Notes: a model not told the origin generated them from the sequence alone. DNA of 64,000 nucleotides from an uncultured bacterium (GCA_963720265.1 CAVRET010000002.1:456704-520703); one strand, 5' to 3'. Shown: positions 22,566-38,495, counted from the stretch's first letter. Numbers and translations: made by a program.

Positions 22566-22622
22566 ACTTTACCCTGAGAAAGTATATCGGTACAGTAAGG
22601 GATAGTTAAGTTCGGAGCATCC

Positions 22623-23980: not shown

Positions 23981-24177
23981 CCGGCGGCCGGGGCGACGAC
24001 GACCCCGACCGCCCAAGACTGGAGGCTGCTTCCAGTCTTAATTAATGTATGAACTTCAGACGGCCGTGATATACTGGGTGCCGGGCACCCAGCCCTTCAC
24101 GCATAAATCTAATTAATAATTCCTGGTACCCCTTAGCGGACACGTTACGAACTCTAAGCCCGTAGTGATTGTTAATA

Positions 24178-24945
24178 CTAAAGCTCAAACACCGTCACAA
24201 TTGGCAAATGGTCGGACGCCTTGCTTAGGGGCAAATCAGTCTCAAGAACTTTCATATCACGAGTTGCGAACATGTAATCAAGCCGCCAAGTGAAGGGGTC
24301 CGCCTTATGATTAGTGTCGTGGTATTGAAAGGGCATCGTTGGGAAAGATGGCTGACTATCAACCGGATCCGCCTGCATCAGTGACCTCCTGAGGGACTGG
24401 ATAATGTAAGAATCAGGATCCGCGTTGAAGTCCCCAGCAAGTACAAATCTCTCTGTTCGATTGCCTATTGCCTCAACAAGTCGGTCAGACTCAGCCTTCC
24501 GGTGTTCAGTCATTTCAAAATAGGGTGAGTACGACAGCTGAGTCGTTCCAACTGTCAATTCGCCTGAGGGCGTAACAAACGTGCCCTCTATATATACCCG
24601 GTCATAATTCGAAGCATCATGTTTGTCGGAATCGCCGCGGTTAATGAGTGTATGGCTAAAGCTCTTCACCCCATGCCTACCGAACAAGCCGACACCCTCT
24701 ATCTTATGACGCTCACCGGCGCGCTGAATAGTGGGCACGAAGCTGTATGCGTAACCCAAATCGGCCACGAGCTCCGGAACGTTGATATCAGGATTAGCCT
24801 CAGAATCCTTTGTCATTTCCTGCAGGCATAAAATGTCAGCGTTAACAGATTTAATAAATTCTAGGGTTGGACCGACTGGGCTTTTCCAATATAGATTCCA
24901 GTTCAGAATTTTTAACTTCATGGAACAATTATAGGTTGCTCTCAA
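24178..24945 (-). CDS. Endonuclease/exonuclease/phosphatase (EEP) family protein
   Basis: 'LKILNWNLYWKSPVGP...ADILCLQEM...' N-terminal EEP motifs and 'SDHLPIVTVFEL' at the C-terminus. Confidence 0.85.
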   Translation of the reverse strand: MRATYNCSMKLKILNWNLYWKSPVGPTLEFIKSVNADILCLQEMTKDSEANPDINVPELVADLGYAYSFVPTIQRAGERHKIEGVGLFGRHGVKSFSHTLINRGDSDKHDASNYDRVYIEGTFVTPSGELTVGTTQLSYSPYFEMTEHRKAESDRLVEAIGNRTERFVLAGDFNADPDSYIIQSLRRSLMQADPVDSQPSFPTMPFQYHDTNHKADPFTWRLDYMFATRDMKVLETDLPLSKASDHLPIVTVFEL

Positions 24946-24979
24946 GGACCGACGTAGCCAAAAATAAGCATAACAACTT

Positions 24980-25056
24980 TGGTACCCCCGGCAGGACTCG
25001 AACCTGCGACCATTGGCTTAGAAGTCCACTGCTCTATCCAGCTGAGCTACGGGGGC
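24980..25056 (-). tRNA. tRNA-Arg (anticodon TCT), CCA encoded
   Basis: Reverse complement gives GCCCCCG-TA-GCTCAGCTGGATAGAGC...CTTCTAA...GCAGGTTCGAGTCCTGC-CGGGGGT-A-CCA. Acceptor, D arm and T arm are perfect. The anticodon stem has only 3 of 5 pairs. Confidence 0.65.
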
Positions 25057-25081
25057 TCATGTCGTCATAATACAAAAATGG

Positions 25082-25152
25082 TGCGGGTGGAGGGAGTCGA
25101 ACCCTCGTAACCTGCTTGGAAGGCAGGCGCACTGCCGTTATGCTACACCCGC
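25082..25152 (-). tRNA. tRNA-Gly (anticodon TCC)
   Basis: GCGGGTG-TA-GCAT-AACGGCA-GTGC-G-CCTGC-CTTCCAA-GCAGG-TTAC-GAGGG-TTCGACT-CCCTC-CACCCGC-A. All stems pair. CCA is not encoded. Confidence 0.85.
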
Positions 25153-25259
25153 GCAGCAAGCACACCTACTATACCAGCGAGCGACCATAAGCACAAATAA
25201 ATCCCGGGCGCATGCTTCCCGGGATTTATCGCGGACTTGGACTTAAAACAACGAGCGGC

Positions 25260-25730
25260 CTACAGGCAGCCCTGGCTAACCCATTGGTTCCAATCATTCT
25301 GGCACCAATTCGAACTATAGCAACACCACTTGCCGTTGCTCCAATAGCCCATTTGGCTGTAGTTGTACCACTTGCCGTTGTACATCATGCCGCCATTGTT
25401 GCCGTAGTTGTTACCACTGTTCGCGTAGTAAATGCTACCGCCACCGTAGTTATTGTTGCCGTAGTTGCTACCACCGCCATTGCTGTAGTAAATGCTACCG
25501 CCACCGTAGTTATTGTTGTTGTAGTTGCCACCTTGGTTGCCATAGCTATTGCCATAGCGGTTGCTACTATTGTAGTTGCTGTACAACGCCGGCTTCTGGT
25601 TGTTGCAGTTGCAATTGTTGCCGCGGTTCATGTCGCCCGAATTGCCAGCCAGAGCGCTTGCTCCGCCGAGCGCCACGATCCCTGCTGCAACGGCCAAGCC
25701 GCCACCATACCTAATTAATAATGTTTTCAC
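25260..25730 (-). CDS. Secreted Gly/Asn/Tyr-rich low-complexity repeat protein with a Cys/Trp-rich C-terminus
   Basis: Signal peptide 'MKTLLIRYGGGLAVAAGIVALGGASALA'. Internal tandem repeat NYGGGSIYYxNxG(x)NYGNN, with a matching ~60-bp DNA repeat at about 25430-25530. The plus-strand ORF 25212..25718 is its antisense. Confidence 0.5.
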   Translation of the reverse strand: MKTLLIRYGGGLAVAAGIVALGGASALAGNSGDMNRGNNCNCNNQKPALYSNYNSSNRYGNSYGNQGGNYNNNNYGGGSIYYSNGGGSNYGNNNYGGGSIYYANSGNNYGNNGGMMYNGKWYNYSQMGYWSNGKWCCYSSNWCQNDWNQWVSQGCL

Positions 25731-25890
25731 GCACCCTCCTTATTGGATTTATTAGTTGTTACAACTGTTCAGAATAGCGCACTAACGGTATATAAGTACA
25801 AAAAAAGTTACAAAAATCCGGCACCAAATCGCTCAAAATTTGGGAATATTGTCAGTCACACGAAATGTCGGGTAAAATGAATTAGTCCTG

Positions 25891-25965
25891 GTCGGGGTGA
25901 AAGGACTCGAACCTTCGACCTCCTGCTCCCAAAGCAGGCGCGCTAGCCAACTGCGCCACACCCCG
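25891..25965 (-). tRNA. tRNA-Pro (anticodon TGG), CCA encoded
   Basis: CGGGGTG-TG-GCGC-AGTTGGCTA-GCGC-G-CCTGC-TTTGGGA-GCAGG-AGGTC-GAAGG-TTCGAGT-CCTTT-CACCCCG-A-CC(A). Confidence 0.85.
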
Positions 25966-26037
25966 ATAACCTTGCCATTATACTAGATTTTCAGGCTAGA
26001 ATACGGTAAAGTACCTAAGTTAAAAACCATTTCCCAT

Positions 26038-26115
26038 GGCGGGAGTAGCTCAGTTGGTTAGAGCGACGGGTTGTGGTCCCGTAGGTCGTGGGTTCGAGCC
26101 CCATCTCTCGCCCCA
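26038..26115 (+). tRNA. tRNA-His (anticodon GTG) with genomically encoded G-1 and CCA
   Basis: G(-1)-GCGGGAG-TA-GCTC-AGTTGGTTA-GAGC-G-ACGGG-TTGTGGT-CCCGT-AGGTC-GTGGG-TTCGAGC-CCCAT-CTCTCGC-C-CCA. The extra 5' G pairs with C73. Confidence 0.9.
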
Positions 26116-27687
26116 AGCATTCATTTTCTTCGCGTCTGCGATTGCAGAAAACGCACTGTTAAGCTCAAAAACCAACGTTGAGCCTTCCAGTTGGGTGTTC
26201 GAAAGTACGAACTGGATGAGCCGCCTCTTTGTGCTGACAGGAGTTCTCTCGTTCAGGAAAATCTCGCTGGCTCGGCTAGCGACTTCTAAGACCTTGGACG
26301 CGGATACCACAAAGCGCTCGTTGCCCTGGCTGTGGTCTTTTATTTGCTCTAGCACATCAGCTTGGCGCTGCGCCTTTTCGCCAATCAGCTCTTCGAACAA
26401 CTCAGGCTTAATCTTGAATTTTGAGCGGTCTCGAAACATATCTTTAATCTCTTCATCCAGGCGCTTGTATTCTTTCTGCAGCGAGTCCACTTGGCGCTTG
26501 TAGTAATCTTGCTCGCCGTTAAACTCTCTCTCCAGGTCTTCGACCAGCTTTGGCAGCATGTCTCCTGGTATTCTGAACGACTCCAGTATTGCTACTATCT
26601 GGGCGTTGATTACCTTCTCGTTCACCCACTTCGCCCCGTGTTTACCCCCGTACTCTGTGCACTTTAGGTAGTAGTTGCCACCGTTCTTCGGCCCGTCGGT
26701 CGATACAGTGTAGCCGCATGTTCCGCACCTGAGCATATCTTTGAACAGGTATTCTTTTCCCACCAACTTGGTTCTCTGCTTTGAGCGCTTCGCATCTACT
26801 GCTTTCACCTTTTGCCACATCCACGGGTCAATCAGCGGCTCGTATTTGTGAGGGTATTGTTTGCCCTCGTAAACCATCGTGCCAGAGTAAAACGGGTTCA
26901 TCAGGAAATGCTGGACCTGGGTTTTCGGAATCGGCTTCTTCTTAATACTGGAGACCATGCCCTTTTTTCGCAGCTCTTTGGTGATTGCACCATACGACAA
27001 CCCTGCGGCCCGCATCTCGAAAGCCTCTCTTACGAACTGCCTCTTCTCAGGGTCTGCCTCAATATCTTTGATTGGGTCTCCCTTGGTAGTGTAGCCAACG
27101 ATAATGTTCCGGTAGCCAATTGGCGCTTTCCCTGGCCACTCCTGGTCGGCCAGCTTTTGCTCAAATTTGCGGCGTACATTGTCTCTTATTGCGGAACTAT
27201 AATAACTGGCCAGTGCTACGCCAATGTCTAAGCGGAATAGGTCGGCTGCTGGCGAATCTTTGTGTACAAACAAATTGTCCGCTGGAAAATGAAGCTCAAT
27301 TTTCCCCGCCCGCATCAACTTTGTCATGATGCTCTTTTCTTCACTTGAGCTATCGCGAGTGTAGCGGTCAATTTTGTCGAAAGTGACTATGACTAGGCCT
27401 TCCGCCTGCTTGAGCGGCTGAAGCACCAGCTCGCTGAAGGTTTTCCTGGCCTTGCCGTAATATGCCGACTCATCAAATTCCGCGTACGCGTAACGTTCCG
27501 GTCTTTTCTCCACATATTCGACCAGCCGTTTGCGCTGTGCTGGCAGCGCCGGCCTTTGGCTGGCATCAGAGACCCGTGCCACAGCTAAGATAAAACTGTC
27601 GCCGGATTCTGCGAGACGTTCCACCTTCTCTGCTTTCTCGGGCATGAAGCTGTCGCCTTCAAACATCGCCATTGCCTGTGTTTTCAT
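26050..27687 (-). CDS. Large serine recombinase (integrase)
   Basis: 545 aa. N-terminal resolvase catalytic domain '...ILAVARVSDASQRPALPAQ' (catalytic Ser), a recombinase domain, a zinc ribbon 'CGTCGY...C', and a coiled coil. The C-terminal 22 codons overlap the tRNA-His 3' end. Confidence 0.9.
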   Translation of the reverse strand: MKTQAMAMFEGDSFMPEKAEKVERLAESGDSFILAVARVSDASQRPALPAQRKRLVEYVEKRPERYAYAEFDESAYYGKARKTFSELVLQPLKQAEGLVIVTFDKIDRYTRDSSSEEKSIMTKLMRAGKIELHFPADNLFVHKDSPAADLFRLDIGVALASYYSSAIRDNVRRKFEQKLADQEWPGKAPIGYRNIIVGYTTKGDPIKDIEADPEKRQFVREAFEMRAAGLSYGAITKELRKKGMVSSIKKKPIPKTQVQHFLMNPFYSGTMVYEGKQYPHKYEPLIDPWMWQKVKAVDAKRSKQRTKLVGKEYLFKDMLRCGTCGYTVSTDGPKNGGNYYLKCTEYGGKHGAKWVNEKVINAQIVAILESFRIPGDMLPKLVEDLEREFNGEQDYYKRQVDSLQKEYKRLDEEIKDMFRDRSKFKIKPELFEELIGEKAQRQADVLEQIKDHSQGNERFVVSASKVLEVASRASEIFLNERTPVSTKRRLIQFVLSNTQLEGSTLVFELNSAFSAIADAKKMNAWGERWGSNPRPTGPQPVALTN

Positions 27688-27896
27688 TTGTTGCCTCCTT
27701 TATTCTTTTCAATGTCCGCAGCCTTCAGGCTTGCGTACTTTTCATCCAGCTCGTTTTGCCTATCTTGCTCAATCAGCAATTTCAGATAGCCAATCAACCC
27801 GTCTTGTTGCTGCGGCCCGTCAGGTCGCAACGCTTGTTTTGCTAGTTTTTCAAATCGCTTTTTTCTGCGGCTCATTTTGCCTCCGTTCGCACCCAA
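27684..27896 (-). CDS. Small basic/acidic helical protein upstream of and overlapping the integrase (possible recombination directionality factor)
   Basis: 70 aa. 4-nt overlap with the integrase start. No motif recognised. Confidence 0.35.
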   Translation of the reverse strand: MGANGGKMSRRKKRFEKLAKQALRPDGPQQQDGLIGYLKLLIEQDRQNELDEKYASLKAADIEKNKGGNK

Positions 27897-28136
27897 AAGG
27901 GGCGACTCCGGTTGACCCAGCTAGGCTCAAGAAGAGCTGTTACCGGCGGAGCCGCCCCTAAGGAGCGGTAAAGCCACTAAAAAACTTCTTGGGCAAAATC
28001 TAGCTTGGGTCAACGAATTAATTATAATCCGGTGAATCATAGATATCTAATAGACTTATCCACTTAGAAGAGGGAATCTAATTGGATATCCAATAGTATT
28101 TAGGTATCCATATAGACATCTATATAGCTATATAGA

Positions 28137-28529
28137 TTAGGGTGGTTTATTCGAGTCTTTTTCTAGCTCTTCAAAGGCTTTATCCATAAGTTCGTCCAGG
28201 TTCTCGATATCCTCATCGGTAGGGAGAATATCAGGAGTTTTCAGGGCCTCAACAGCTTCGAGTACAAGGCTCTCAATTTTCTTCCTCAGCACTGATTCTT
28301 TTGTCAGCTCAATCGGCTTGATGTAACCATTACCGCGCTTAAACGCCGGCATCTGGACCCACAAGTCCCCGTAGCGAGGCGAGCGGCGAACACTAATGCT
28401 GTTAATGAACAGCTCAATGTCCGGAAAGTTGACTTTAACGAGGTAATATTCAGCCTTGTCATCGCGGTAGTACACCTCTGCCGTAGCAAGGTCAAGGCTG
28501 AGGAAAATTTTAGTTGGCTGGTCGCTCAT
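28137..28529 (-). CDS. SpoVG-like protein (phage or plasmid-borne)
   Basis: 'VKVNFPDIELFINSISVRRSPRYGDLWVQMPAFKRGNGYIKPIEL' resembles the SpoVG core (hhhDIRVh..G.LFVAMPSKR..G...DIAHPI). Start uncertain. Confidence 0.4.
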   Translation of the reverse strand: MSDQPTKIFLSLDLATAEVYYRDDKAEYYLVKVNFPDIELFINSISVRRSPRYGDLWVQMPAFKRGNGYIKPIELTKESVLRKKIESLVLEAVEALKTPDILPTDEDIENLDELMDKAFEELEKDSNKPP

Positions 28530-28815
28530 TCGTACCATCCTCATGCTCATTTTTAACTTCAGAATGTTGCCCGCCGTACAGCCACGATTTCAACCTACGA
28601 GTTGCGTCGTGATACAGCCTGGGGTTCAATTCGATGCCGTCATCCCAATACAGTTCCACTACAGAGCGCAGTTCCGGCGAGTCCCAAAAAACAAAACCAA
28701 CCCGCCGCTGATTACTCCGGTCCAGGCCAATCGCTTTGAAGCCTTTGGCAGCCAGGACCGCAGCTAGCGGCAGGTCGGATGTAGTGAATTGTTTTTCAGC
28801 CAGTGCCATTCTCAT
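28510..28815 (-). CDS. DUF5659-like phage-associated protein
   Basis: 'FTTSDLPLAAVLAAKGFKAIGLDRSNQRRVGFVFWDSPEL' matches my recollection of DUF5659. Confidence 0.4.
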   Translation of the reverse strand: MRMALAEKQFTTSDLPLAAVLAAKGFKAIGLDRSNQRRVGFVFWDSPELRSVVELYWDDGIELNPRLYHDATRRLKSWLYGGQHSEVKNEHEDGTNERPAN

Positions 28816-28878
28816 CCTGCGTGATTACAGGTGTGAGCTTAGCCTAGTAATTTTCCGTGGTATAACCCCTAAATGAGT

Positions 28879-29571
28879 TCACTTACGTTTTGACTGGCGT
28901 TCAAATGTGCGAATAAGGCCAGGAATTTGTGTATAGTCGTAGATTCCTCCAAGCTCTTCCTCAATGCGGGCAGCAATCTCGCGGTTTGTAAGGTTGGGGT
29001 CTTCTTGCTTCAATTCTGCTGCTCGCCGTCCGTCTTCCAACCTTTCATCATCTAACGCTCTTATTTGGTGTACTCTTTTATGCTTCAGCGATGCCAGGTG
29101 CCAGCTCACGTCCTTCCACGCCGCTTTCCACTCACGGCTGTTAATGTTGGCATCAACATGCACTATTAGATAATCAAGTGGTTTACCCATATGGTCGCTT
29201 GAGCGGACGCCCACATTAGTTGTGGGCCGCAGTTTACTGCGGTCACCGTAGGTAATGAAATCCGTAATGAAAGAGTCCCAGAAAGGAGAACAGCGATGTT
29301 TGGCAACAAGCTTGGCAGTTGCGTTCTCAAGTAGAGTTGATGGCATACGGGCTAGTATTTTGTCGCCGTCCCAGTCTTTGCCAGCAGCAACGTATGCTTC
29401 TCTGTTGTGCGATAAAAAATAATCGTGGTCGAGGTCAACTCTTTCCTTATACCCGCCTGTCGGATAGCCGAGCCTTCTGCGCACTCGGTCCGCATCTTTG
29501 CGAAACTCTATGTTTTGCAAAAACGCCTCATACGCTTTCTCAGCGGAACTTTTTACTTTGGTGTCAGCCAT
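28879..29571 (-). CDS. hypothetical protein
   Basis: Start chosen at 'MADTKVK', which has a GGAG Shine-Dalgarno 6 nt upstream. 230 aa. No family recognised. Confidence 0.5.
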   Translation of the reverse strand: MADTKVKSSAEKAYEAFLQNIEFRKDADRVRRRLGYPTGGYKERVDLDHDYFLSHNREAYVAAGKDWDGDKILARMPSTLLENATAKLVAKHRCSPFWDSFITDFITYGDRSKLRPTTNVGVRSSDHMGKPLDYLIVHVDANINSREWKAAWKDVSWHLASLKHKRVHQIRALDDERLEDGRRAAELKQEDPNLTNREIAARIEEELGGIYDYTQIPGLIRTFERQSKRK

Positions 29572-29684
29572 TTTCATCTCCATCCTCATCTGGGCATATT
29601 CTCTCACGCCTGGTTGCCAACAGGGGTATCCGGAAGAATTCCTAGTCAATTCACGGCTTGCGGTTTACCTGTCAAAATAAAAAT

Positions 29685-30134
29685 ATGGGGGAGAAGTCAA
29701 CAAAAGTCGGCCGGCCAGCCGCGATAACAACGGCTTGTGTCCAAAAACTGGAACAGGCGTTTCGTGAGGGTTCGGACACGGCAACGGCCTGCCATCTATC
29801 TGGAATTTCGCGGTCTACATACTACCAACGTCTTGCCGACGACTCCGAGTTTTCGGACAAAATGCGGCTTGCGCAAGAGTGGCCAACTGCACTCGCAAGA
29901 AAAACGGTTGTCAGCGAAATTAACAAAGGCAACTTTACTGCCGCGCGCTGGTGGCTTGAGCGCAAGGCATCTGCCGAATTTGGCCAAACTCCGGCTACAG
30001 GTAAGCATCCCGAACCGGCTATCAACCTAACTCAGGCTCAGTGGGATGCAATGCAGCAAGCTTCAGAAGCTGCAATTCGGTTACTGCAGGGTGAGCCGGA
30101 CACAGGCTCGGGGGCTGGCAATCTCGTTGACTGA
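29685..30134 (+). CDS. HTH DNA-binding protein resembling a phage terminase small subunit
   Basis: 'VGRPAAITTACVQKLEQAFREGSDTATACHLSGISRSTYYQRLADDSEFSDKMRLAQE' is a typical TerS-like N-terminal HTH. Confidence 0.5.
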   Translation: MGEKSTKVGRPAAITTACVQKLEQAFREGSDTATACHLSGISRSTYYQRLADDSEFSDKMRLAQEWPTALARKTVVSEINKGNFTAARWWLERKASAEFGQTPATGKHPEPAINLTQAQWDAMQQASEAAIRLLQGEPDTGSGAGNLVD

Positions 30135-30336
30135 GGCAAAAATGACGCGCATACTTTTTGCGTTGACGTTAGACAGTAGTTTTTAGTTTCCGCGCGTTTT
30201 CGCGTGGTTGCGATTTGAGCCTGAATAGGCCGCAATCACCGAAAAATAGTAGGCTCAAACCTGCTGTCTGGCGTCAACAACCTAGGTGGTTGTGGCCTTT
30301 TTAATTGGCCCTCCCCGTTAATAAAGGAGGCGCGTC

Positions 30337-30723
30337 ATGGACATTCAGCCAGCCACAAAACCTAAACAAGTAGAGATGCCGCCCGACCAGGCTACGGGCA
30401 AAAAGGTGGCCAAAGGGGTGGCCGGAGGCGCTGCTGGGATTATTATGGGGGTCATCATCGGTATAGTAATGTTCATTGCCGGCCTCTTGCTCACGTTCAC
30501 CATCATTGGGGCAATTATTGGAATCCCGCTCATGATTGCAGCTTTTGTAACGCCGTTTGCGTTTGGCGGAGCGATGGCCAAACACGCAGCCACTGCAATT
30601 GAACTGACATGCCCGTACTGCGACAACAAGGTGTCATGGACAAAACGGAAAAAGGCTGGCGTTTGTAGGGTCTGCCAAAAGCGACTGATAATGAAGGGTA
30701 ACAAGCTTCAGGTTGTTGAGTGA
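30337..30723 (+). CDS. Membrane protein with a C-terminal zinc ribbon
   Basis: Strong Shine-Dalgarno (aaggagg). Two TM helices, then 'CPYCDNK...CRVCQK'. Confidence 0.65.
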   Translation: MDIQPATKPKQVEMPPDQATGKKVAKGVAGGAAGIIMGVIIGIVMFIAGLLLTFTIIGAIIGIPLMIAAFVTPFAFGGAMAKHAATAIELTCPYCDNKVSWTKRKKAGVCRVCQKRLIMKGNKLQVVE

Positions 30724-30870
30724 TGCCGGAGGAGAGTAAGAAATCGGCTGAGCGGTTTGTCTGGCACGAGGGGGATTACGAGCTTGTGCCCACGGAAGAA
30801 TTGGGACGTAGCAGGCAAAACAGACTCAACACGCAAAACCCAAAGGCGCGCGGTGAGAGAGAAAGCCCCG

Positions 30871-31965
30871 CTAGGCCTCCACTTTCCCCTCCAGGCCCTG
30901 GAAGCGCATCGCCCGCCTGAACCCTAATTTTTCCGCCTCTGCGACTGTTGAACAATATTTTTCGCCCAGCCTAGGCTTAATTTTTACTCGGTCATATTGC
31001 TGGTCAAACGGAAGGTGATAAATCTTCTCGCCAGTTGCCGGAGCAATATTGCACTTAATGCAGGCATACGGCTGGGGCAGCTTCTCCTGCTCCTTCATTT
31101 CAATCCCAAGTTCGTTGCCGAACCGCCGCGCCAGGTCCGAGACATTGGTTGTTGTGTAGAAGAGAGCACGCACATTCTCGGACCTGTGCTCATCGCGGTA
31201 TTTAAAAACGGTGCCGAAAAACTGAAAAATGTGCTTTTCGTGGAGTAATTTGAACCTTGACCAGTTCTTACATTGAACTACGACAGTCTCTTGGCCCTTC
31301 TTGGCTATCAGGTCACGCCCCAAGTCTTGGCGGCCCTTAATTATGCCCTCATAGCTCACGTCGTACCCCTGCTGCTCGTACACCGACCCAACGTAACGCT
31401 CGTACATTATGCCGATGTGCCATTTTGACTTACGCTTCTTCCAATAGTTATCCAATGCCACCTGGTTGCGCTCACTTGGGGAGAGCGTCTCGTACTGCTC
31501 TTTTGAGAGAAATAATGCGGCATTGTCTTTGGCCTCATCAACCTCAGGCGGCTCATCCGCTTCAACCAAATAACCCTCATCCGCACCAGTGCCATCAAAG
31601 TCCTCTCGTAGCTCGGCCAGCTCTGGCATGAGGGTTTCGTAGTCCTCAACCAGGTAGCGGTACATTCTGCGCTCGGCATCAGCTTCGCGCCGTTGCTTGG
31701 CTATCACCTGCAGTATGTCGCTGGCTTTTGGCGCAGGGTGGGCCTTGTATTTCAGCAGGTCAACGAGCTGCTTGTCCTGCAGTGCCAGATACTCTTCATA
31801 CGCCTTTGCCAGTGTCGGATACCCCTTGGCGTACTCATTCGCCATCTGAGCAATCTCGCGCCTCTGCTGGGCCAGTCTGGGGTAAGTGGCATCAATAAAC
31901 TTTTGTGCCTTTTCGTAGTCGGCCATGAGGCGGCGGAGTTGGTTTAAGAGCTGCTGTGGGTCCAC
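30871..31965 (-). CDS. Coiled-coil protein with an Mrr-type restriction-endonuclease catalytic domain (Mrr_cat) and a C-terminal Zn-finger
   Basis: 'WHIGIMYERYVGSVYEQQGYDVSYEGIIKGRQDLGRDLIAKKGQETVVVQCKNW' is the PD-(D/E)xK Mrr_cat pattern (D...D/E..QCK). C-terminal 'CIKCN...'. GTG start overlapping the stop of the upstream gene by 1 nt (TAGTG). Confidence 0.65.
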   Translation of the reverse strand: MDPQQLLNQLRRLMADYEKAQKFIDATYPRLAQQRREIAQMANEYAKGYPTLAKAYEEYLALQDKQLVDLLKYKAHPAPKASDILQVIAKQRREADAERRMYRYLVEDYETLMPELAELREDFDGTGADEGYLVEADEPPEVDEAKDNAALFLSKEQYETLSPSERNQVALDNYWKKRKSKWHIGIMYERYVGSVYEQQGYDVSYEGIIKGRQDLGRDLIAKKGQETVVVQCKNWSRFKLLHEKHIFQFFGTVFKYRDEHRSENVRALFYTTTNVSDLARRFGNELGIEMKEQEKLPQPYACIKCNIAPATGEKIYHLPFDQQYDRVKIKPRLGEKYCSTVAEAEKLGFRRAMRFQGLEGKVEA

Positions 31966-32489
31966 TAGCGATAGGCCTCATCAAGCTCCTGGAAAAACTG
32001 TCCAAGATAAAGTTCGTCCAGTCTTGGCGAGCCTGCTGGGCCAGTAAAGCCAAAGTCGCAAACGGGGTTTGTGCACCTGTAGCTGTAAATTCCAGCAGCA
32101 CCATTTTGGTATGACCTTTCAACTGTACCCTCCTGGCACTTCGGGCAGTGAATAACTTTCGACTCCCCGAAGTAGCTTTGCCGCTCAACAAACTTACCCA
32201 TTCCATAGCTTGAGAGATAGCGTAACTTGCGCTCAAGTTTCTCAACCGAAGTTGTGCTGAGCTTGTTCTCGCTTACTAGCTGTTGGATCTCAGCAAGTGT
32301 CGCCATGCGGTCAACCGGCTCCGGATTGGGAAGCTCCAGTGGTCGCGCCCCAGCCACACTAGGCTGGCTCCGACGCTGAGCCTTGTACCGGTTGGTTCTA
32401 TGCTCATCATAGCGCTCCCACAGCCAGCCTAGCCCGATTAGTAAGCCAATAATGATAATTACAGTCATGGTTCTGATGTTAAGATACAT
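31965..32489 (-). CDS. Membrane-anchored protein with a C-terminal double zinc ribbon
   Basis: N-terminal TM 'MTVIIIIGLLIGLGWLW'. 'HCPKCQEG...YRCTNPVCDFGF'. Translationally coupled to the downstream nuclease gene. Confidence 0.6.
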   Translation of the reverse strand: MYLNIRTMTVIIIIGLLIGLGWLWERYDEHRTNRYKAQRRSQPSVAGARPLELPNPEPVDRMATLAEIQQLVSENKLSTTSVEKLERKLRYLSSYGMGKFVERQSYFGESKVIHCPKCQEGTVERSYQNGAAGIYSYRCTNPVCDFGFTGPAGSPRLDELYLGQFFQELDEAYR

Positions 32490-32519
32490 CAGTCCACTTG
32501 CTTTGCTAAGGCTCCAATA

Positions 32520-33266
32520 TTACCAGGTGATTACGCTCACCCCCATCTCCTTTAGTTTCTTTTCTTCTTCGGCACTGAGGCCCAGCTCTCGGTTCTCCAT
32601 GTCAAAGCCGTAAGTAATGCCATAAATATTGTGCTTGAAAAAGAATGATTGCCGGCCATTGAGTTGCCTGGGCAAGCCTGAAAATTCGCATTTGTTCTCA
32701 GGGGTCCCAGGCACCACTACCCAGAAACCCTTAAAGTCCCGTACACCCATAATGATTTGGCGTGCTTCATCAAAGCGCGGCTGCAATACATATTCTGCCC
32801 CACGGTCCAGGCACATGAACTCATATGCAATTTTGTAAAGTGCCCTGGCGAAGTTCTTCGCATAATTGGTGGTCATTTTGTCGCCTCGAAGGTGAAGCCT
32901 AAAGTTTACCGACCCGTCAGGTTGCCTAGGCCCTTCTTCGTAATGTTTCGGCGTTGTTTTCGCCATCTCCATGTAAAGACCGCTGCGGTCCGGCTTAACC
33001 TGCATATTTAGGTTGGTCATTCGAACCTCAGGCATCTTACCTTCTTTGTTGGGAACCATAAAATAGGTCCGAAGGTAGGCAATAATCTTGTCTTTCACCA
33101 AAATGGAATCCAGGCCAGCCAGAACCGTATTGTTGCAGTTGTCGCAAACCGTACCCCGTGGCAGCACGTATTTGGTGTTACCAAGGCTCTCTGGCACAAT
33201 ATGCTCTTCCGATGTGAAGCTTCCGTGTTTGGTGAGGCAAAAAACGCACTGCATACCCCCGACCAT
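32520..33266 (-). CDS. HNH endonuclease domain protein with an uncharacterised C-terminal domain
   Basis: 'CVFCLTKHGSFTSEEHIVPESLGN...TVCDNCNN' is a classic HNH (CxxC...H...N...CxxC). Start set at the internal Met; the upstream ORF extension is low-complexity. Confidence 0.7.
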   Translation of the reverse strand: MVGGMQCVFCLTKHGSFTSEEHIVPESLGNTKYVLPRGTVCDNCNNTVLAGLDSILVKDKIIAYLRTYFMVPNKEGKMPEVRMTNLNMQVKPDRSGLYMEMAKTTPKHYEEGPRQPDGSVNFRLHLRGDKMTTNYAKNFARALYKIAYEFMCLDRGAEYVLQPRFDEARQIIMGVRDFKGFWVVVPGTPENKCEFSGLPRQLNGRQSFFFKHNIYGITYGFDMENRELGLSAEEEKKLKEMGVSVITW

Positions 33267-33326
33267 AATGTAATTCGTGGCAAATCTGCAATAAGATAGG
33301 GCTACGTTTGAAAGTTTTAGGGAGAA

Positions 33327-34187
33327 ATGCCGAGAATTAATCCGAAAAAAAGCGATAAACAGGCTGAGTTGGAGAAAGAACTCGATGCGCTGATTGAAAG
33401 CGGGGCTTCCAAGATTGATGGGTATAAGCTGCCCGCTGGAAAGCAAAATCGAAAAACACTTTTTACTCTCGCCACATATGCTGCGGTCAGTGACAGGGCC
33501 GAGGGGATTCTTCTTATGGCGCAAAATTACAAGCCCGACCCAGCTTTTATTATTTTGCGGTCAGCTCAAGAGGGCTATCTTAACCTATGCTACGTTCTAC
33601 AAACCGATAATGATGCGAGACTGCTGGCAATGTTCCATTCTTTGGCAGAGCAGGACGTTCGCCGAGTGAGGTTGCTAGATACGTACCTAAAAACACTAAC
33701 GACCAAATCGGGCGTGCCTGAAGGTCTAAGCAGTGATGCTCACGACGCAATTGCTCGCCTTGAAAAACAGCGCGACCAGGCCCAGCAAGAATTAGCGAAG
33801 CTCGAAGACTCTGAGTTTGCGGCCAAGAGCCTCCCTGACCTTGTCGAGCGCTTACGGCGCTATGATGCAGGGAGTAAAGCCGAGGGCAATGACACTCACC
33901 TGGAGCTGGATTATCGCATGATTTATTTTTTTCTATCTCAGCACACTCACCTTGGGCTTTCGGCTCTAGCGAATAATCTTGGTGAAACCGGCGAGACTGT
34001 TGATTTGAACCCAAAAGACCCTGTCTCCGATTGCGAAATTGTGCTCCACTCCGCATATGCAATTTTAGGCGACACTTTAATGCTGACACTGGCACAAATT
34101 GGCGCTTCAACTGATGGCGTGCTTGAGCAGATGAAGGAAGTTGCCAAGAGACTAAAGCCTGATACAAAAAGTAGCGCTAGCTCATGA
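33327..34187 (+). CDS. Hypothetical protein, first gene of a translationally coupled pair (lower-GC block)
   Basis: 286 aa. The stop overlaps the next start (ATGA). Helical, with no motif confidently recognised. Confidence 0.6.
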   Translation: MPRINPKKSDKQAELEKELDALIESGASKIDGYKLPAGKQNRKTLFTLATYAAVSDRAEGILLMAQNYKPDPAFIILRSAQEGYLNLCYVLQTDNDARLLAMFHSLAEQDVRRVRLLDTYLKTLTTKSGVPEGLSSDAHDAIARLEKQRDQAQQELAKLEDSEFAAKSLPDLVERLRRYDAGSKAEGNDTHLELDYRMIYFFLSQHTHLGLSALANNLGETGETVDLNPKDPVSDCEIVLHSAYAILGDTLMLTLAQIGASTDGVLEQMKEVAKRLKPDTKSSASS

Positions 34188-35152
34188 AGCGTTCAGCCTC
34201 GCAGAAGGTCCAGCTCATTACTAAGTCGCGTGAGGCAACTCTGGCTGCCGTTCAGCTATTCAATAATCCTCTAGCCAGTTTCAAAACAGAGTCCTTCATC
34301 GTTCTCAGTATGATTGCCTGGACTTACATGCTGCACGCGTACTATCGCGCAAAGGGCGTCGAGAACCGCTACTTTGAGCAAGGCCCAGTGCGAAGACGCT
34401 TTGTTCGCAACTCAGACAATAGTTACCGATATTGGGACTTAACAGAGTGCATAAAATCGGAACACTGCCCTCTTGACAGCAACACATCCAACAACCTGCT
34501 GTTCCTTATCGGACTACGCAACCAAATAGAGCACAACAGGCCCGAGGGTTTGGACTCTTACTTGTCTGCTCGCTACCAGGCGTGTATGTTGAACTTCAAT
34601 TTTTACATTAAGAAGCTGCACGGTGAAAAATATGGTCTAGATGACAACCTTACGCTCAGTCTGCAATTCGGCGAGCTTACCTACAACCAAGCGAATGTCA
34701 TAAAAAATAAGGAGAAGCTTATACCTGCCGGCATCAATTCATACATTGCCAGCTTTGACAGCAAATTAAGTGAAAACGAACGCAATAATGAGCGCTATGC
34801 GTACAGGTTGCTGTTTACCAAAACTTCAGCCAAACGCGAAGGTCAAGCTGACAGGGTTGTCGAGTTCCTTGACCCGAATTCCGAGCTAGCTAAGAACATT
34901 GATAAAGAGTATTGGGTAAAAGAGGAAAGAGAAAAGCCCAAATTTCGCCCAACTGACGTGGTCAGGGAAGTCCAAAAAGCAGGCTTCAGAGCGTTCAACA
35001 TCACAAAACACACAGATATGTGGAAGGCCCATGACGCAAAGAGTCTGGCAAAGGGGTACGGCGTTGAAGTGGCAAAGACTTGGTATTGGTACCAAAATTG
35101 GGTGGACTTGGTAATTCAGGAGTTATCCGAGGCGGGCAGAACTCAAATTTGA
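34184..35152 (+). CDS. DUF3644-like protein (a family I recall from abortive-infection and defence-island contexts)
   Basis: 'REATLAAVQLFNNPLASFKTESFIVLSMIAWTYMLHAYYRAKGVE...RYWDLTECI' matches my recollection of the DUF3644 N-terminal signature. 322 aa. Confidence 0.5.
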   Translation: MKRSASQKVQLITKSREATLAAVQLFNNPLASFKTESFIVLSMIAWTYMLHAYYRAKGVENRYFEQGPVRRRFVRNSDNSYRYWDLTECIKSEHCPLDSNTSNNLLFLIGLRNQIEHNRPEGLDSYLSARYQACMLNFNFYIKKLHGEKYGLDDNLTLSLQFGELTYNQANVIKNKEKLIPAGINSYIASFDSKLSENERNNERYAYRLLFTKTSAKREGQADRVVEFLDPNSELAKNIDKEYWVKEEREKPKFRPTDVVREVQKAGFRAFNITKHTDMWKAHDAKSLAKGYGVEVAKTWYWYQNWVDLVIQELSEAGRTQI

Positions 35153-35340
35153 CTATGACAGCACAGTTTTAAACCGAATATCGGCTCCAGGAAGCCGTTA
35201 TTTTGTTGTTTACATCTTTAACCCGTATAGGGCTTCGAACACCAGAATAAGTTCTTTTCGAGCCGAAGGCGAAAGCACACTCTTGAGAGGGGTTATTTCA
35301 AAGTTTTTAACAACAGATAGGGAAAGATTACAATAACGTC

Positions 35341-36132
35341 ATGAAATTACCCATCATGGCCAATGTAACCTTTAAAACTCCTCACGGCTTATTGCAGCTT
35401 CAAGGCGCACCGGATATAGGCCACTTTAACCAGCGATTGAAGGCCTATTTTGAAGATGAATTCAAGAATCCAGACGCGCTGTCCTCTTACTCAAATTTTC
35501 AAAAGATTTTAAACAAAAAGGCAAAAGAGGTATCTCATTTAAGGATTTACGATTTTGAAGCTGAACAAAGGGTAGGCGAGTTAGTGGTTGTATCTGCAAT
35601 AGCAGCTACGTTAAACCACATTCACGGCATGGCACTTATACCAGGATGGCAGAGGTCAGGGCAGCAAGTGATCATGGAGCAAGAGTTCGGCAAAAAGAGC
35701 TGGGATGGATTTGTGTATGAGACCCCTACGGATGGTACCGATAAGGCTTTTCCAAATTTCGTAGAGGTAAAATCAACTATGGTAAACCCAAGTGAAGACG
35801 TAATGAGCCCGAATGAATTGATGAACAGCAGACTCGAACAGTACAGAAAACACTTTCAATCTTCTGACACAATCTGTGCAATATTCATCATGCCCTATAC
35901 TGCCCCTGGAGAGCGGCTTCGATTCGACCTTAAAGACGCTACGGAAAAACTTAACAATGTGGTTGCGGATGGCGCTATGGGTAGTATCTGTCTGCTCAGC
36001 TTTCCGACCAATGAGAGCGGACAGACGGTAATGACCATTCATTGCTATCTAGTAAACAAAAACCCAAAGCTTGGTAAGAATGGAAAAATTGATAACGTCA
36101 GTTTAGGAAAACTTGAGTTAGCGGACTTTTAA
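35341..36132 (+). CDS. hypothetical protein (AT-rich gene)
   Basis: 263 aa. Clean ORF. No family recognised. Confidence 0.55.
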   Translation: MKLPIMANVTFKTPHGLLQLQGAPDIGHFNQRLKAYFEDEFKNPDALSSYSNFQKILNKKAKEVSHLRIYDFEAEQRVGELVVVSAIAATLNHIHGMALIPGWQRSGQQVIMEQEFGKKSWDGFVYETPTDGTDKAFPNFVEVKSTMVNPSEDVMSPNELMNSRLEQYRKHFQSSDTICAIFIMPYTAPGERLRFDLKDATEKLNNVVADGAMGSICLLSFPTNESGQTVMTIHCYLVNKNPKLGKNGKIDNVSLGKLELADF

Positions 36133-36168
36133 GATTATAGCGATGGTGCGTTAGGAGAGGCGATTACT

Positions 36169-36245
36169 GACCGAAACCTAATATCATTCACCATCCGTGC
36201 AATCTCTCCGTTCGCTGTTCGAAACTTGAACCATAGCTCGCCCCA
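36169..36245 (+). repeat. Repeat A: att-like imperfect direct repeat ending in the tRNA-His 3' core
   Basis: gaccgaaacctaatatcattcaccatc...aatctc...gttcgaaacttgaaccatagctcgcccca. Shares 'ctcgcccca' with tRNA-His 26107-26115. Confidence 0.7.
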
Positions 36246-36350
36246 AAGAACTTATGCTTAAAAAGGTGTTAACTCGCCTTTTTTGTTGCCAAAAGCAAGG
36301 ACGCCCTGGTTGGGCGTCCCGCTAATGCAGGAGCCCAACCAGGGCGTAGT

Positions 36351-37481
36351 TCAGGCGGCCTCGAGGACGAGGTTCGCCAGTTCGGACAGGTCGTGCCGGT
36401 TGCCCTGCCGCCAGCCGAGGTGGTAGGCCTCGTAGACCGGCGGGTCGTTCGGCCGGCCCAGGGTGTTGGGCACAGCGACCCGGTCGCTGGCAACGATCGC
36501 GCCCTCGTAACCGTAGAAGTACTTCAGCGCGCCGGGCAGGCCCAGGGCGAGGTCTTCGGGCGACGAGCACTGGTCGTTGTTGCAGCAGGGCAACGGCTGG
36601 CCAAGCACCACCACCGAGGTGTCGGGGTGCTGCTGGTACAACTCGATCGCCGCGTCCGAGTTCAGCGCCGGCAGGAGCTGGATGGTCGGCAGGTCGGGGA
36701 AGGCGGCCAGGATGGCTGTCTGCCACACTGGGTCCGCCTCGGCCACGATGACCTTGGTGACGTTCACCCAGGCCCGGTCGGGCTCGACCTGCACGAAACC
36801 GAGCAGGTCGCGGAGGTACTCCTCGAGCAAGCCGCCCTTGAAGGGCTGCCCGTCGAATTCGTCCTCCACCGGCCCTCGCAACGCCTTGAGCAGTCGCCGC
36901 CGCAGGCCCCGGATGAGGCCGTAGTGCGCCAGCAGCTCGTAGACGGCGGTGTTGTAAAGCCGGTGGTTCTTGTGGTACCACTTCAGGCTCGGCACGCGGC
37001 CGTAGAGGTCCTCGTCCATGTCGCACGTGCAGTTGCCGTCCCGGTCGGGGGCGAGGCCGCTGGCGAAGGCGTTGTGGACCTCGGAGGGCCGACGGGTCGC
37101 GGCGAACTTCTCGAACGTCGCCAGCCAGCCCAGCACTTCCGTGAGGGCCTCCTGCTCGCGCAGAAGATCGATCATCCGGTAGAGATACCACGCGCCGCCG
37201 CTGGGGTCCTCGGGCCGAGGCTTGAGCTGACGTACAGCGAGTGCCGCCTTGACGTCGCCCTGCTCCCTGGCGGCCTTGAATGCACGGGCGTGCTCTTTGG
37301 CCTCCTCGGTCCAGGGGTACTGGTCATCGAACGGCAGGGGCTCAGTGTTGATCGCCAGCGTCAGGCTGATGCTGTAGCGCCGCATCACCCTCCGCAGCAT
37401 GGCGAGCATCCGGTCGACGGACGCGAGCCGGCGCCGCATGTGATCGAGCGTCGGGGTGGACGTGACGAGGGTCTCGCTCAT
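36351..37481 (-). CDS. Hypothetical protein, strongly GC-rich single-gene cassette between repeats A and B
   Basis: 376 aa with normal composition. The overlapping ORFs in other frames (36393..37487 +, 36322..37191 -) are R/G/V/P-rich artefacts of high GC. Confidence 0.55.
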   Translation of the reverse strand: MSETLVTSTPTLDHMRRRLASVDRMLAMLRRVMRRYSISLTLAINTEPLPFDDQYPWTEEAKEHARAFKAAREQGDVKAALAVRQLKPRPEDPSGGAWYLYRMIDLLREQEALTEVLGWLATFEKFAATRRPSEVHNAFASGLAPDRDGNCTCDMDEDLYGRVPSLKWYHKNHRLYNTAVYELLAHYGLIRGLRRRLLKALRGPVEDEFDGQPFKGGLLEEYLRDLLGFVQVEPDRAWVNVTKVIVAEADPVWQTAILAAFPDLPTIQLLPALNSDAAIELYQQHPDTSVVVLGQPLPCCNNDQCSSPEDLALGLPGALKYFYGYEGAIVASDRVAVPNTLGRPNDPPVYEAYHLGWRQGNRHDLSELANLVLEAA

Positions 37482-37616
37482 AGCTAAGCGTCACCTCCCT
37501 TTCTGGATAGGAACGGAACAACATTACTGTAGAACTAGGAAATATCATAACACATAATGACAAAAATTACAAGTATAAGCGCTGGCAGTACTTCACTTTC
37601 GGCTCAACTCAGCACT

Positions 37617-37696
37617 GAGCGGAACCGAATATCATTCACCATCGCCAAAATCTCGCTCAAACACTGGGTTCGAAACGTGAACCATACCTCGCCCCA
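37617..37696 (+). repeat. Repeat B (same family as A)
   Basis: gagcggaaccgaatatcattcaccatcgccaaaatctcgctcaaacactgggttcgaaacgtgaaccatacctcgcccca. Confidence 0.7.
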
Positions 37697-37958
37697 TTGC
37701 AATTATAGAAATAATAACTTCACAGAGCCATTAGTTTGTTTAATCGGGCTCAACCCCAAAAGCTACTTTCGAGCCAACTTTCGAGCCAACAATACTTGCA
37801 ATTTTGATAAAAACATGCTAATGTAATAAGCATTCGATCGTGAGATTGGATAATTTTGACATGGATTTGGGCCGGATTATTGCTCCACACCCGTGTGGCA
37901 ATAACCCGGCCCAGGATAATAGGATATCCAGGCCAGCGCTCTAGAAAGGATTCGCACC

Positions 37959-38495
37959 ATGAGCGCATCACACCTAACCCGCCCCGCCCGTCAGGATATG
38001 GTGGATCGGACGATCGACGACCTCTACCGGCTCCTGGGCATCGGCCGAGCGGACATCTTCGAAACGGAGACCTTGCTCCAGAGGGCATACGAGGGCTTGC
38101 CTAAGTACCCCGACGACAAATACTTCCAAATCTCGGTTGCGTGGCCGTACGTCAGCCGCGATGTCACCGAACTGCTACGGCACTTCAACGAGCCCGAGAA
38201 CATGTGGGACCGACACCGGCAGCTTGCTGCCATTTGCCTGGTTCTACGCATGCAGGCCCGGGCTCTGGAGCGGCCGCTCTTCGAGCCGATCGACCACTCA
38301 CAGTGGATCTACCTGGGTTCGATGCGTACCGATGGGGGCCTCGTCGACCTGTGGGGCGCCCGCGACTGGGAGACTGTCGACGTCCGTTGGGCGCAAGGAA
38401 CCCTCAGGCGCACTGGTGCGACGACTTCCCCGGACCTTCGGATCCGCGAGGCGTACCGTCGGCTCCAGCGCGCCTACCACGGCCCCGATATCTGA
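37959..38495 (+). CDS. Hypothetical protein, single-gene cassette between repeats B and C
   Basis: 178 aa. GC-rich. No family recognised. Confidence 0.5.
   Translation: MSASHLTRPARQDMVDRTIDDLYRLLGIGRADIFETETLLQRAYEGLPKYPDDKYFQISVAWPYVSRDVTELLRHFNEPENMWDRHRQLAAICLVLRMQARALERPLFEPIDHSQWIYLGSMRTDGGLVDLWGARDWETVDVRWAQGTLRRTGATTSPDLRIREAYRRLQRAYHGPDI

Follow-up and report, generated by a model that had tools for sequence, protein, structure and literature searches.

The 64,000-nt stretch of DNA analyzed here, referred to as the window (CAVRET010000002.1:456704-520703 of assembly GCA_963720265.1, from an uncultured bacterium), carries a gene for a large serine recombinase (LSR) that runs antisense into the 3' end of a tRNA-His gene. 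Our data support the notion that positions 26117-36246 are a site-specific island of this recombinase, with the attachment site attP situated inside the recombinase gene itself, and we assign this reading a probability of about 0.85.

In the mechanism that we propose, the island of ~10.1 kb would have been inserted by its own LSR into the tRNA-His gene, at its 3' end, on the chromosome of a Candidatus Saccharimonadia bacterium. Crossover would take place among the six terminal bases of this tRNA (positions 71-76, CCA included), where the CCA is antisense to TGG, the codon for Trp525. The acceptor/T-arm of the tRNA would provide the left arm of the chromosomal site attB, and the downstream flank with its terminator the right arm. 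Integration would regenerate an intact tRNA and cut the LSR gene after codon 527, leaving the native C-terminal tail of ~33-35 aa, which is predicted to be helical, at the far end of the island within a repeat named repeat A. The integrated gene would instead read into the antisense strand of the tRNA for an 18-aa peptide that is predicted to be disordered, while excision by attL x attR recombination would rebuild a full LSR gene of 560 aa. The sequences show the anatomy, the coupling of tRNA ends to the Trp codon throughout the family, the empty sites, a sister element that is present or absent at its site, and the spacing of the motifs in attB and attP; present-day activity, an exact crossover dinucleotide and a role of the tail exchange in activity or directionality are what we infer from them.

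The integration site and the displaced recombinase tail

The target is a tRNA-His(gtg) gene on the plus strand (26039-26115), on which ARAGORN and Rfam agree and which is the last of four tRNA genes found by them at 24980-26115. As the original prediction had proposed, G-1 (26038) and CCA (26113-26115) are encoded and can be read directly from the sequence, together with the acceptor 3' strand CTCTCGC and the discriminator C73. The 545-aa recombinase that had been described as antisense to the tRNA 3' end was also borne out. The integrated form of its gene occupies 26050-27687 on the minus strand; the stop codon is located at 26050-26052, and the last 21 codons with the stop (26050-26115) are antisense to tRNA-His, residues 528-545 being encoded by the tRNA antisense strand. 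The protein contains the domains Resolvase (PF00239, E=3e-10), Recombinase (PF07508) and Zn_ribbon_recom (PF13408), all above the curated Pfam cut-offs.

The element measures 10,130 bp and has the core CTCGCCCCAA on both sides, as attL core at 26107-26116 (tRNA positions 68-76 plus 1 nt) and as attR core at 36237-36246, with the tRNA left intact. In the longer alignment the distal CCATAGCTCGCCCCAA (36231-36246) pairs with CCATCTCTCGCCCCAA (26101-26116), 10 nt being exact. Taken as a bare 16-mer, the repeat is weak evidence and unremarkable in statistical terms, with 3 matches with up to 3 mismatches compared to 0.64 expected, and 3 were reached in 2 of 100 shuffles. The distal copy becomes meaningful because of its position, since it forms the end of the conserved repeat A of ~100 nt, coincides with a step in GC content from 43% to 67% at ~36246, and marks the point where homology to the empty sites resumes. 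Thereby the right end is marked by repeat A, as had been predicted, and the GC profile is mosaic, as had also been stated. The left arm of attB (B) is the tRNA-His gene on the plus strand (26038-26115), with the T-loop GTTCGA at 26091-26096, and the right arm (B', 36247-36292, plus strand) begins with AAGAACTTATGCTTAAA, after which come a hairpin and a T run. Position 36246 represents a genuine junction, because this B' sequence is homologous to the native flank and terminator directly 3' of tRNA-His in relatives that have no LSR there.

Relatives with an uninterrupted tRNA-His locus, the comparison suggested together with the original prediction, were indeed found (loci are given with the prefix L). 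Exact-pattern matching of the tRNA-His 3' end against JGI metagenomes yielded six contigs. As far as tRNA-His, the contigs L083/L085 show synteny with the window, one protein being 96% identical; directly after tRNA-His they have AAGCACTTATGTTTAAA, a hairpin and a T run, compared to AAGAACTTATGCTTAAA, a hairpin and a T run from window position 36247. L088 was found via its RNase Y, which is 94% identical. It aligns colinearly with positions 7233-26117 of the window, the nucleotide identity being 71-81%, and has no LSR after tRNA-His; the site is also uninterrupted in L091/L093. Between L095 and L091 the flanks share 99.8% and 99.96% identity, and an insertion of 9,151 bp is present in L095 exactly at the end of tRNA-His; the two metagenomes are apparently from one project (samples 3300059835 and 3300056832). 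This insertion encodes an LSR (P0002) that is 63% identical to the one in the window, has the core CGCCCCAA and a repeat-A-like right end, and its reconstructed tail ends with WGGLGFKFRTECFAQIMAMVNDIRFKSLQI and a stop codon (also given as ending with FKFRTECFAQIMAMVNDIRFKSLQI and a stop). A third tRNA-His element, of ~7.7 kb, is present in L096 (P0006). Since the sister element is polymorphic within one population, the LSR family moves. Rather than the same genes in a conserved and non-mobile context, the related loci thus display empty sites and the L095/L091 polymorphism, which favor mobility and support the integrative element of ~10 kb that had been proposed at tRNA-His.

The host is assigned to the Saccharibacteria (TM7, Patescibacteria) on the basis of sequence similarity, with a GC content of ~56% that is unusually high. 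The assignment follows from the RNase Y of the window, which is 86-87% identical to its closest named relatives, proteins called Candidatus Saccharimonadia bacterium, and from the gene content of the window, which encodes type IV pilus genes (PilB/GspE- and PilC/GspF-type), RNase Y and NrdJ.

The displaced 3'-terminal part of the LSR gene, or tail exon, is located at 36135-36245 on the minus strand and encodes WGELWFKFRTANGEIARMVNDIRFRSVIASPNAPSL before a stop codon. It is in frame with the LSR solely across the reconstructed attP junction 36246/26117. When 36246 is joined to 26117, as it would be in the excised circle, the LSR frame is carried past WGE into LWFKFRTANGEIARMVNDIRFRSVIASPNAPSL and a stop, a tail whose motif also occurs in the native tails of homologues with uninterrupted genes. 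The tail exon is placed inside the first copy of repeat A (36150-36262), and this copy is at the same time the P arm of attP; compared to the tRNA, its TCGAAC is 5 bp more distant from the core. Conservation of repeat A covers ~90-110 nt, which is far longer than an LSR half-site of ~25 bp. All eight copies that were compared (three from the window, two from L087 and three from L088) are open over 30-36 codons with a stop at a similar place and share the frame WGEL..FRT..EI..MVNDIRFRSV.. throughout. The copies differ by synonymous changes (RFR, for example, is encoded by agg ttt cgg or by cgg ttc cgc) and by an in-frame 3-nt indel; between the first copy of the window and the seven others, synonymous divergence (pS) is 0.39-0.53 and nonsynonymous divergence (pN) 0.19-0.30. 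By its sequence, repeat A can be identified as the LSR gene's displaced 3' end combined with an attP arm.

Structure prediction points to a difference between the two kinds of tails. In the AlphaFold2 model based on an alignment of 56 sequences, the native tail of the homologue P0016 forms three short helices after the invariant Trp, with a predicted local distance difference test score (pLDDT) of ~90, and residues 528-545 of the window LSR score below 50. Together with the comparison of repeat-A copies, the models make it probable that integration swaps a folded C-terminal module for a disordered peptide. Whether such a swap has functional consequences is a separate matter, for which we see slightly less than even chances.

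The recombinase family and its coupling to tRNA genes

The LSR has the motifs expected for its class, namely the catalytic Ser40 in ARVSDxxQ, DKIDRxxR, the zinc-ribbon cysteines and a long coiled-coil. In alignments of 22 and 56 sequences S40, Q44, D107, R108 and R111 are invariant and R38 is nearly so, and C321, C324 and C343 are invariant in the family alignment. The AlphaFold2 models contain long helices at ~378-478, which represent the coiled-coil insertion. The best Foldseek matches to the model of an LSR homologue were the integrases of SPbeta, phiC31, Bxb1 and LI, with E values down to 6e-16.

A protein search identified 407 relatives of the LSR, and a genome scan with one genome per species resulted in 80 loci, nearly all from metagenome-assembled genomes of Saccharibacteria/Patescibacteria, plus three from Streptomyces/Kitasatospora. 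A convergent tRNA overlaps the LSR 3' end in 59 of the 80 loci, most often Gly-gcc (25) or Asn-gtt (22), followed by Arg (8), Asp (2), Gly-tcc (1) and Trp (1). Further six loci adjoin 3' fragments of tRNA-Asn, and at three loci the contig ends within ~55 nt, yet the sequence reads as tRNA-Gly antisense. About ten loci keep an uninterrupted LSR gene with a long native tail. One Trp near the C-terminus (W525) is invariant in the family alignment; beyond it, the proteins have a stop (WGE and stop), a tRNA-antisense-like end (…SGSNRRP, …DSNQRP), or the shared motif W..L...FRTE.R.EI…FR.L. In 58 of the 58 readable loci, the terminal CCA of the tRNA is the antisense of the in-frame TGG codon for this Trp. 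Because the CCA of the tRNA corresponds to the antisense of the invariant Trp codon of the family, attP is placed inside the LSR gene. Judged from these loci, the overlap of LSR and tRNA is a family trait and not an incidental feature.

Both ends could be mapped in 12 elements. The block of identity spans 8-11 nt and always includes TGG plus the 3 nt after it (tRNA positions 71-76). Crossover is therefore placed within CCA and the 3 nt upstream of it, because this is the only block common to all 12. At 11 other loci the best TGG-anchored upstream match is located 6.6-9.9 kb from the LSR end and is followed by an in-frame tail of the native type; at L078, which has an LSR of 35% identity and a span of 8.2 kb, the distal tail contains VNDIRF. 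The distal chromosomal flank of the mapped elements shows a hairpin and a T run, corresponding to the tRNA terminator. The T-loop motif N[CT][GAT]AAC is the antisense of GTTCRA (tRNA positions 53-58). Its offset, counted from the base that follows TGG, is 16 in all 12 B arms and 21 in 9 of the 12 P arms, while a variant longer by 1 nt occupies the same place in the remaining three; intact LSR genes carry …AAC at offsets 24-26. In the model for LSR recombination, the motif bound by the zinc-ribbon domain (ZD) is 5 bp closer to the center in attB than in attP (PMC3783163). Since the motif sits 5 bp further out in the P arm, the tRNA side is attB-like and the repeat-A side attP-like, and the T-loop GTTCGA is likely the ZD motif, as far as the sequences tell. 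The enzyme would then read the universal T-loop and cross over in or next to the universal CCA, and the universality of both elements would explain the moves of the family among six tRNA identities.

Several members of the family deserve mention for their genomic setting. At L022, L023, L039, L060, L071 and L008 the LSR 3' end adjoins just a 25-45-nt 3' fragment of tRNA-Asn, and similarity fades near the anticodon arm, as though the LSR element and the 3' half of the tRNA had both been displaced by a second element or a rearrangement. The Kitasatospora and Streptomyces loci L002, L014 and L017 encode members of the family at 45-52% identity, which are uninterrupted, have native tails and no adjoining tRNA, and the first bases after their Trp codon, TGGTACCCC, resemble the acceptor end of tRNA-Arg. 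Actinomycetes are the kind of bacteria on which Saccharibacteria live, and the actinomycete occurrences suggest a spread of the LSR family across phyla. The interpretation of the P0011 contigs as free circles was considered and rejected, as ordinary genes come after the LSR there. No relative of the LSR was found when 2.9 million IMG/VR viral contigs were scanned with the family alignment. A full-text literature search, whose coverage is incomplete and which may miss a later report, returned no description of the family or of LSR/tRNA islands in Saccharibacteria. The family of LSRs that target tRNA genes is large and apparently undescribed.

Cargo genes, downstream cassettes and neighboring sequences

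A 70-aa basic open reading frame (ORF) on the minus strand (27684-27896) overlaps the start of the LSR gene. A small basic ORF directly upstream of the LSR, overlapping or abutting its start, is found in all three tRNA-His elements. The original prediction had listed an ORF of the size of a recombination directionality factor (RDF); the ORF exists and is conserved in the sister elements, but a role as RDF or regulator is putative. It matches no Pfam, PHROG or PADLOC family, and to our knowledge RDFs have no common family.

Next to it, a SpoVG-like protein of 137 aa is encoded on the minus strand (28137-28550). This match had been predicted and was seen again, although it is weak and below the Pfam cut-off (E=0.008); the ORF belongs to a conserved backbone common to L095, L096, L009 and L020, and together with the small basic ORF it forms the LSR-side backbone of the three tRNA-His elements. 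The predicted DUF5659 protein (28510-28815, minus strand) was confirmed with E=5.5e-12, and it is followed by a 256-aa ORF (28879-29649, minus strand) without match in Pfam, PHROG or PADLOC. On the plus strand, 29658-30134 encodes a helix-turn-helix (HTH) protein resembling a small terminase subunit (TerS); the expected similarity is found with phrog_4102 (E=3e-17), while the Pfam match is weak and below the cut-off. Homologues of this TerS-like protein occur in L010, L015 and other related elements. L095 and L096 have an XRE-type HTH gene near the backbone, whereas the window has the TerS-like HTH protein instead. A membrane protein with a zinc ribbon (30337-30723, plus strand, phrog_10121) follows.

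The candidate defense modules mentioned in the original prediction are supported by family matches. On the minus strand, 30871-31965 encodes a restriction-endonuclease-like protein with the Pfam domain Mrr_cat, a candidate defense module, preceded by a gene for a zinc-ribbon/transmembrane protein (31965-32489), and 32520-33524 encodes a protein with an HNH_5 endonuclease domain in Pfam, whose real start is probably downstream of the mechanically assigned one. On the plus strand, a DUF5677 protein (33327-34187, Pfam) is followed by a DUF3644 protein (34184-35152), which corresponds almost end to end to the PADLOC candidate defense system PDC-S19 (E=5e-128). Translational coupling of DUF3644 to DUF5677 suggests a two-gene form of PDC-S19. 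The last gene of the island, a 263-aa ORF (35341-36132, plus strand), has no match in Pfam, PHROG or PADLOC. In the sister elements, L095 encodes at 2588-6383 a Mrr_cat/NA-iREase1/zinc-ribbon protein beside an 860-aa protein of no known family, and L096 encodes at 4102-7402 an AAA_15/SMC-like ATPase and a UvrD helicase, a Gabija-like pair. Cargo genes rarely recur among the 80 loci, and by these similarities the variable cargo looks defense-type. Overall, the cargo thus combines variable genes of this type with a small conserved backbone made up of the small basic ORF and the SpoVG-like, DUF5659 and HTH genes. No virion, replication or conjugation genes were recognized in the element by the Pfam and PHROG scans.

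The accessory region had been delimited at 26038-36245; the island in it is real, but the region continues to 38669 with two LSR-less cassettes bounded by repeat A. Cassette 2 (36247-37696) contains one gene and ends in the second copy of repeat A (37599-37713), which encodes WGEVWFTFRTQCLSEILAMVNDIRFRSVLS and a stop. Its gene (36351-37481, minus strand, 376 aa, 67% GC) has a single homologue, P0243 at 82%, in a search of a database of 5.8 billion proteins. Cassette 3 (37697-38669) likewise contains one gene (37959-38495, plus strand, 178 aa, ~64% GC) and ends in the third copy (38570-38689), encoding WGELMCASRTRFAGEILKMVNDIRFRSVLSLP and a stop; a hairpin terminator is situated after it at 38682-38697. 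Neither gene product matches a Pfam, PHROG or PADLOC family. Further core copies at 37682-37697 and ~38660-38669 each end a repeat A, and each cassette of the window has B'-like sequence and a hairpin at its start and repeat A at its end. Exact look-ups of the LSR and of the 376-aa protein returned no contigs. Cluster look-ups for these two and for the 263-aa cargo ORF gave a singleton in each case, located on the source contig of 1.1 Mb. Between the stop of the 376-aa gene and the terminator of the tRNA flank, 36301-36347 holds a perfect 15-bp inverted repeat, ACGCCCTGGTTGGGC and GCCCAACCAGGGCGT, which is probably the terminator of that gene itself.

Such cassettes are also found in related bacteria. 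L088 contains three of ~0.8-1.1 kb after tRNA-His, one of them encoding an APH-family kinase; L087 contains two and differs from L085 by ~1.6 kb inserted between duplicated core and B' segments. L085 probably has a similar array after tRNA-His as well. Ordinary LSR chemistry could generate these cassettes, if excision between attL and a more distal attR took flank genes along, and after re-integration a second excision at the proximal attR left them behind. A bolder alternative would be direct insertion of cassette circles, as in integrons. That the cassettes represent an actively built array is a tentative idea, which we would not favor at present. Equally doubtful to us is the joint reading in which the site made of T-loop GTTCRA and CCA/Trp allows retargeting, the tail swap acts as an activity or directionality switch, and the LSR mobilizes cassettes into integron-like arrays. 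Within this same reading, some high-GC genes of the cassettes might possibly have been taken from actinobacterial hosts, which harbor the LSR family.

In L085, the uninterrupted tRNA-His has genes for a DDE_Tnp_1 transposase and a DUF397 protein on its downstream side (1036-2856), and the site is a general hotspot; DUF397 is typical of Streptomyces. A 376-aa ORF of L085 was considered as kin of the window ORF of this length, but the length coincidence is meaningless and the L085 ORF is the DDE transposase. L082 (680-712) and L084 (7288-7320) contain a 33-nt tRNA-His 3' fragment identical to that of the window with non-tRNA sequence before it, and in L082 a degenerate repeat A lies 3.1 kb downstream of the fragment; these are displaced tRNA fragments belonging to another kind of insertion. 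In the window, the segment 22961-24945 between HU and the tRNA cluster comprises a 339-aa ORF with 61-65% GC and no Pfam match as well as a gene of the endonuclease/exonuclease/phosphatase family with 48% GC. Because this segment has no DNA-level match in the syntenic L088, the left side of the tRNA cluster is variable, too. Between tRNA-Gly and tRNA-Pro, 25260-25730 (minus strand) encodes a product of 156 aa with much Asn, Gly and Tyr, a hydrophobic segment at its N-terminus and no family match; an antisense ORF of similar length overlaps it.

Alternative readings and comparison with known systems

Several points weigh against the interpretation of 26117-36246 as an LSR island with an internal attP. 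The direct repeat alone is short, and the region contains many chance pairs of 16 nt and 88% identity of like quality. A clear shared motif is seen in one att arm only, with no common ZD motif in the P' and B' arms, and no RDF can be identified by homology in the element. Neither a circular or excised form nor a same-strain empty site was found, look-ups of the element's proteins returning only the source contig. Approximately ten relatives, three Streptomyces/Kitasatospora contigs among them, have intact genes in large chromosomal contigs, for which this interpretation does not account. With regard to the tail, the pN/pS ratio of ~0.5 of repeat A indicates only moderate constraint, the contrast in pLDDT depends partly on the alignment depth for each kind of tail, and the conservation of the FRT/QT/LT codons is explained in part by the DNA motif itself.

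The chance repeats could mean that there is no element at all, just an ordinary chromosomal LSR gene beside a tRNA. This is effectively refuted by the comparative evidence, namely by relatives with an empty site, by the polymorphic insertion and by the coupling of tRNA ends to the Trp codon across the family, and its probability is close to nil. It is a more serious objection that repeat A might be conserved purely as DNA of the attP arm, the tail having no protein function and the ORF/tRNA overlap being a by-product. The RT/QT/LT residues of the tail are indeed conserved because their codons overlie the T-loop motif NC[GAT]AAC, and repeat A is kept by LSR-less cassettes that have no LSR gene to complete. 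Conservation over ~90-110 nt nevertheless exceeds a half-site of ~25 bp by far and includes the synonymous changes and the in-frame 3-nt indel; moreover, tails of 30-40 aa are conserved lengthwise within subfamilies and in intact genes, and the native tail is predicted to be folded, which makes the DNA-only explanation the less plausible one, albeit the strongest of the alternatives. The island might also be a fixed remnant, in which the integrated LSR is inactive without its native tail and the element is locked. Integration takes away a tail that is confidently predicted as helical, the LSR-less cassettes show that pieces get left behind, and a precedent is given by the tyrosine integrase genes of Mx8 (IntP) and of the spindle-shaped viruses (SSV) that span attP (cited in PMC4383910; PMC7253208). 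However, the LSR ORF is unbroken and retains every invariant catalytic and zinc residue, the two att sites and the tail exon are preserved, and the sister element is polymorphic within one population, so that we regard immobility as improbable.

The extent and the origin of the mobile unit can be questioned as well. A larger or composite unit, 26117-37696 or 26117-38669, could move via attL and a more distal repeat A, because the window has three copies of repeat A in the same orientation, each with the core CTCGCCCCA and an intact tail ORF, and any of them would rebuild a full-length LSR; similar cassette arrays follow tRNA-His in L088, L087 and probably L085. The homology of the flank at 36246 with the native tRNA-His flank, which marks a genuine junction, and the single units of 9.2 and ~7.7 kb in the sister elements L095 and L096 speak against it. 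We consider a composite unit rather unlikely, roughly one chance in a few, and it is compatible with the 10.1-kb unit, the two not being exclusive. A phage satellite similar to phage-inducible chromosomal islands (PICI), or a cryptic prophage remnant, spread by a helper phage via the TerS-like protein, would agree with the match of the 29658-30134 protein to small-terminase PHROGs (E=3e-17), with the recurrence of its homologues in related elements, and with the size of ~10 kb and the order of integrase, regulators and cargo. In contrast, capsid, portal, large terminase, primase/replicase or repressor-type matches are missing from the Pfam and PHROG results for the element, and the TerS-like match covers mainly the HTH region, with its Pfam counterpart below the cut-off. 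A phage origin is furthermore unsupported because of the absence of the LSR family from the IMG/VR contigs, and this explanation is the least probable of those that accept an element. The features of PICI-like satellites are accordingly limited to the TerS-like HTH protein, with no replication or capsid-related matches. An inovirus-like element, considered for the size of 7-10 kb and the hosts of the Candidate Phyla Radiation (CPR), was rejected, as no pI/Zot ATPase or rolling-circle replication matches appeared in Pfam and PHROG, and an integron was rejected since the recombinase is of the serine type, repeat A is a protein-coding att arm, and no IntI was found.

The reading as an LSR island matters beyond this locus, which looks ordinary on its own, whereas the family rule behind it is unexpected for the enzyme class. 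It provides comparative evidence for a large clade of tRNA-targeting serine integrases, a type of targeting that a standard reference called unknown in this class. The site logic, with the T-loop and CCA as the Trp codon, makes the target predictable from the recombinase gene alone. Integrated and excised isoforms are naturally comparable, which bears on how the directionality of LSRs is set. The islands, which contain defense genes, are apparently the commonest small mobile islands of Saccharibacteria, episymbionts for which few mobile elements and genetic tools exist. The short natural attB sites in tRNA genes could serve for genome integration in Saccharibacteria and perhaps in other bacteria.

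By its domains, structure and att geometry the enzyme is a large serine integrase, which differs in its target and in the position of attP. The integrases of phiC31, Bxb1, A118/LI and SPbeta (SprA) have the same order of resolvase domain, recombinase domain and zinc ribbon with coiled-coil insert. Large serine integrases of phages and integrative and conjugative elements likewise use short att sites with a small identity core and a 5-bp shift of the outer motif (PMC3783163). Unlike them, the family described here targets tRNA 3' ends via T-loop and CCA, and its hosts are mostly Saccharibacteria of the CPR.

The islands of staphylococcal cassette chromosome mec (SCCmec) with their Ccr recombinases are inserted by LSRs at the 3' end of rlmH (orfX) in staphylococci, and they form tandem arrays with recombinase-less units between repeated integration-site sequences. 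However, the target of Ccr is protein-coding and the ccr genes do not span the att site, while the recombinase-less units of the window are single-gene cassettes of ~0.8-1.5 kb that end in a tail-encoding repeat of ~100 nt. Integron arrays also consist of single-gene cassettes that end in a recombination-site repeat beside a fixed site, and, as here, their content varies between relatives. This likeness concerns the layout only. Integrons depend on a tyrosine recombinase and on attC sites that fold as single strands, and gene orientation is mixed in the arrays described here. The tycheposons of Prochlorococcus are small tRNA-associated islands with cargo or TerS-like genes that leave flanking material behind, and LSRs occur in 27 of 937 of them, nearly all using tyrosine recombinases (bioRxiv 10.1101/2020.12.28.424599). 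The island of the window is likened to tycheposons by description.

A parallel in arrangement comes from the integrase of the myxophage Mx8 and from the archaeal integrases of the SSV type, called suicidal. The Mx8 integrase is reported to gain a new C-terminus upon integration (Tojo et al. 1996). Mx8 IntP and the SSV-type enzymes have attP within the integrase gene and likewise target a tRNA, and integration alters the integrase, the gene being split in SSV (PMC4383910, PMC7253208). Unlike them, the enzyme of the window belongs to the serine and not to the tyrosine superfamily, with other chemistry and att architecture, and the exchange is limited to ~33 residues that follow the last conserved Trp, so that the catalytic and DNA-binding domains stay intact. 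Collectively, the island is the counterpart, with a serine recombinase, of the Mx8/SSV arrangement, and T-loop and CCA are the basis of its site logic.

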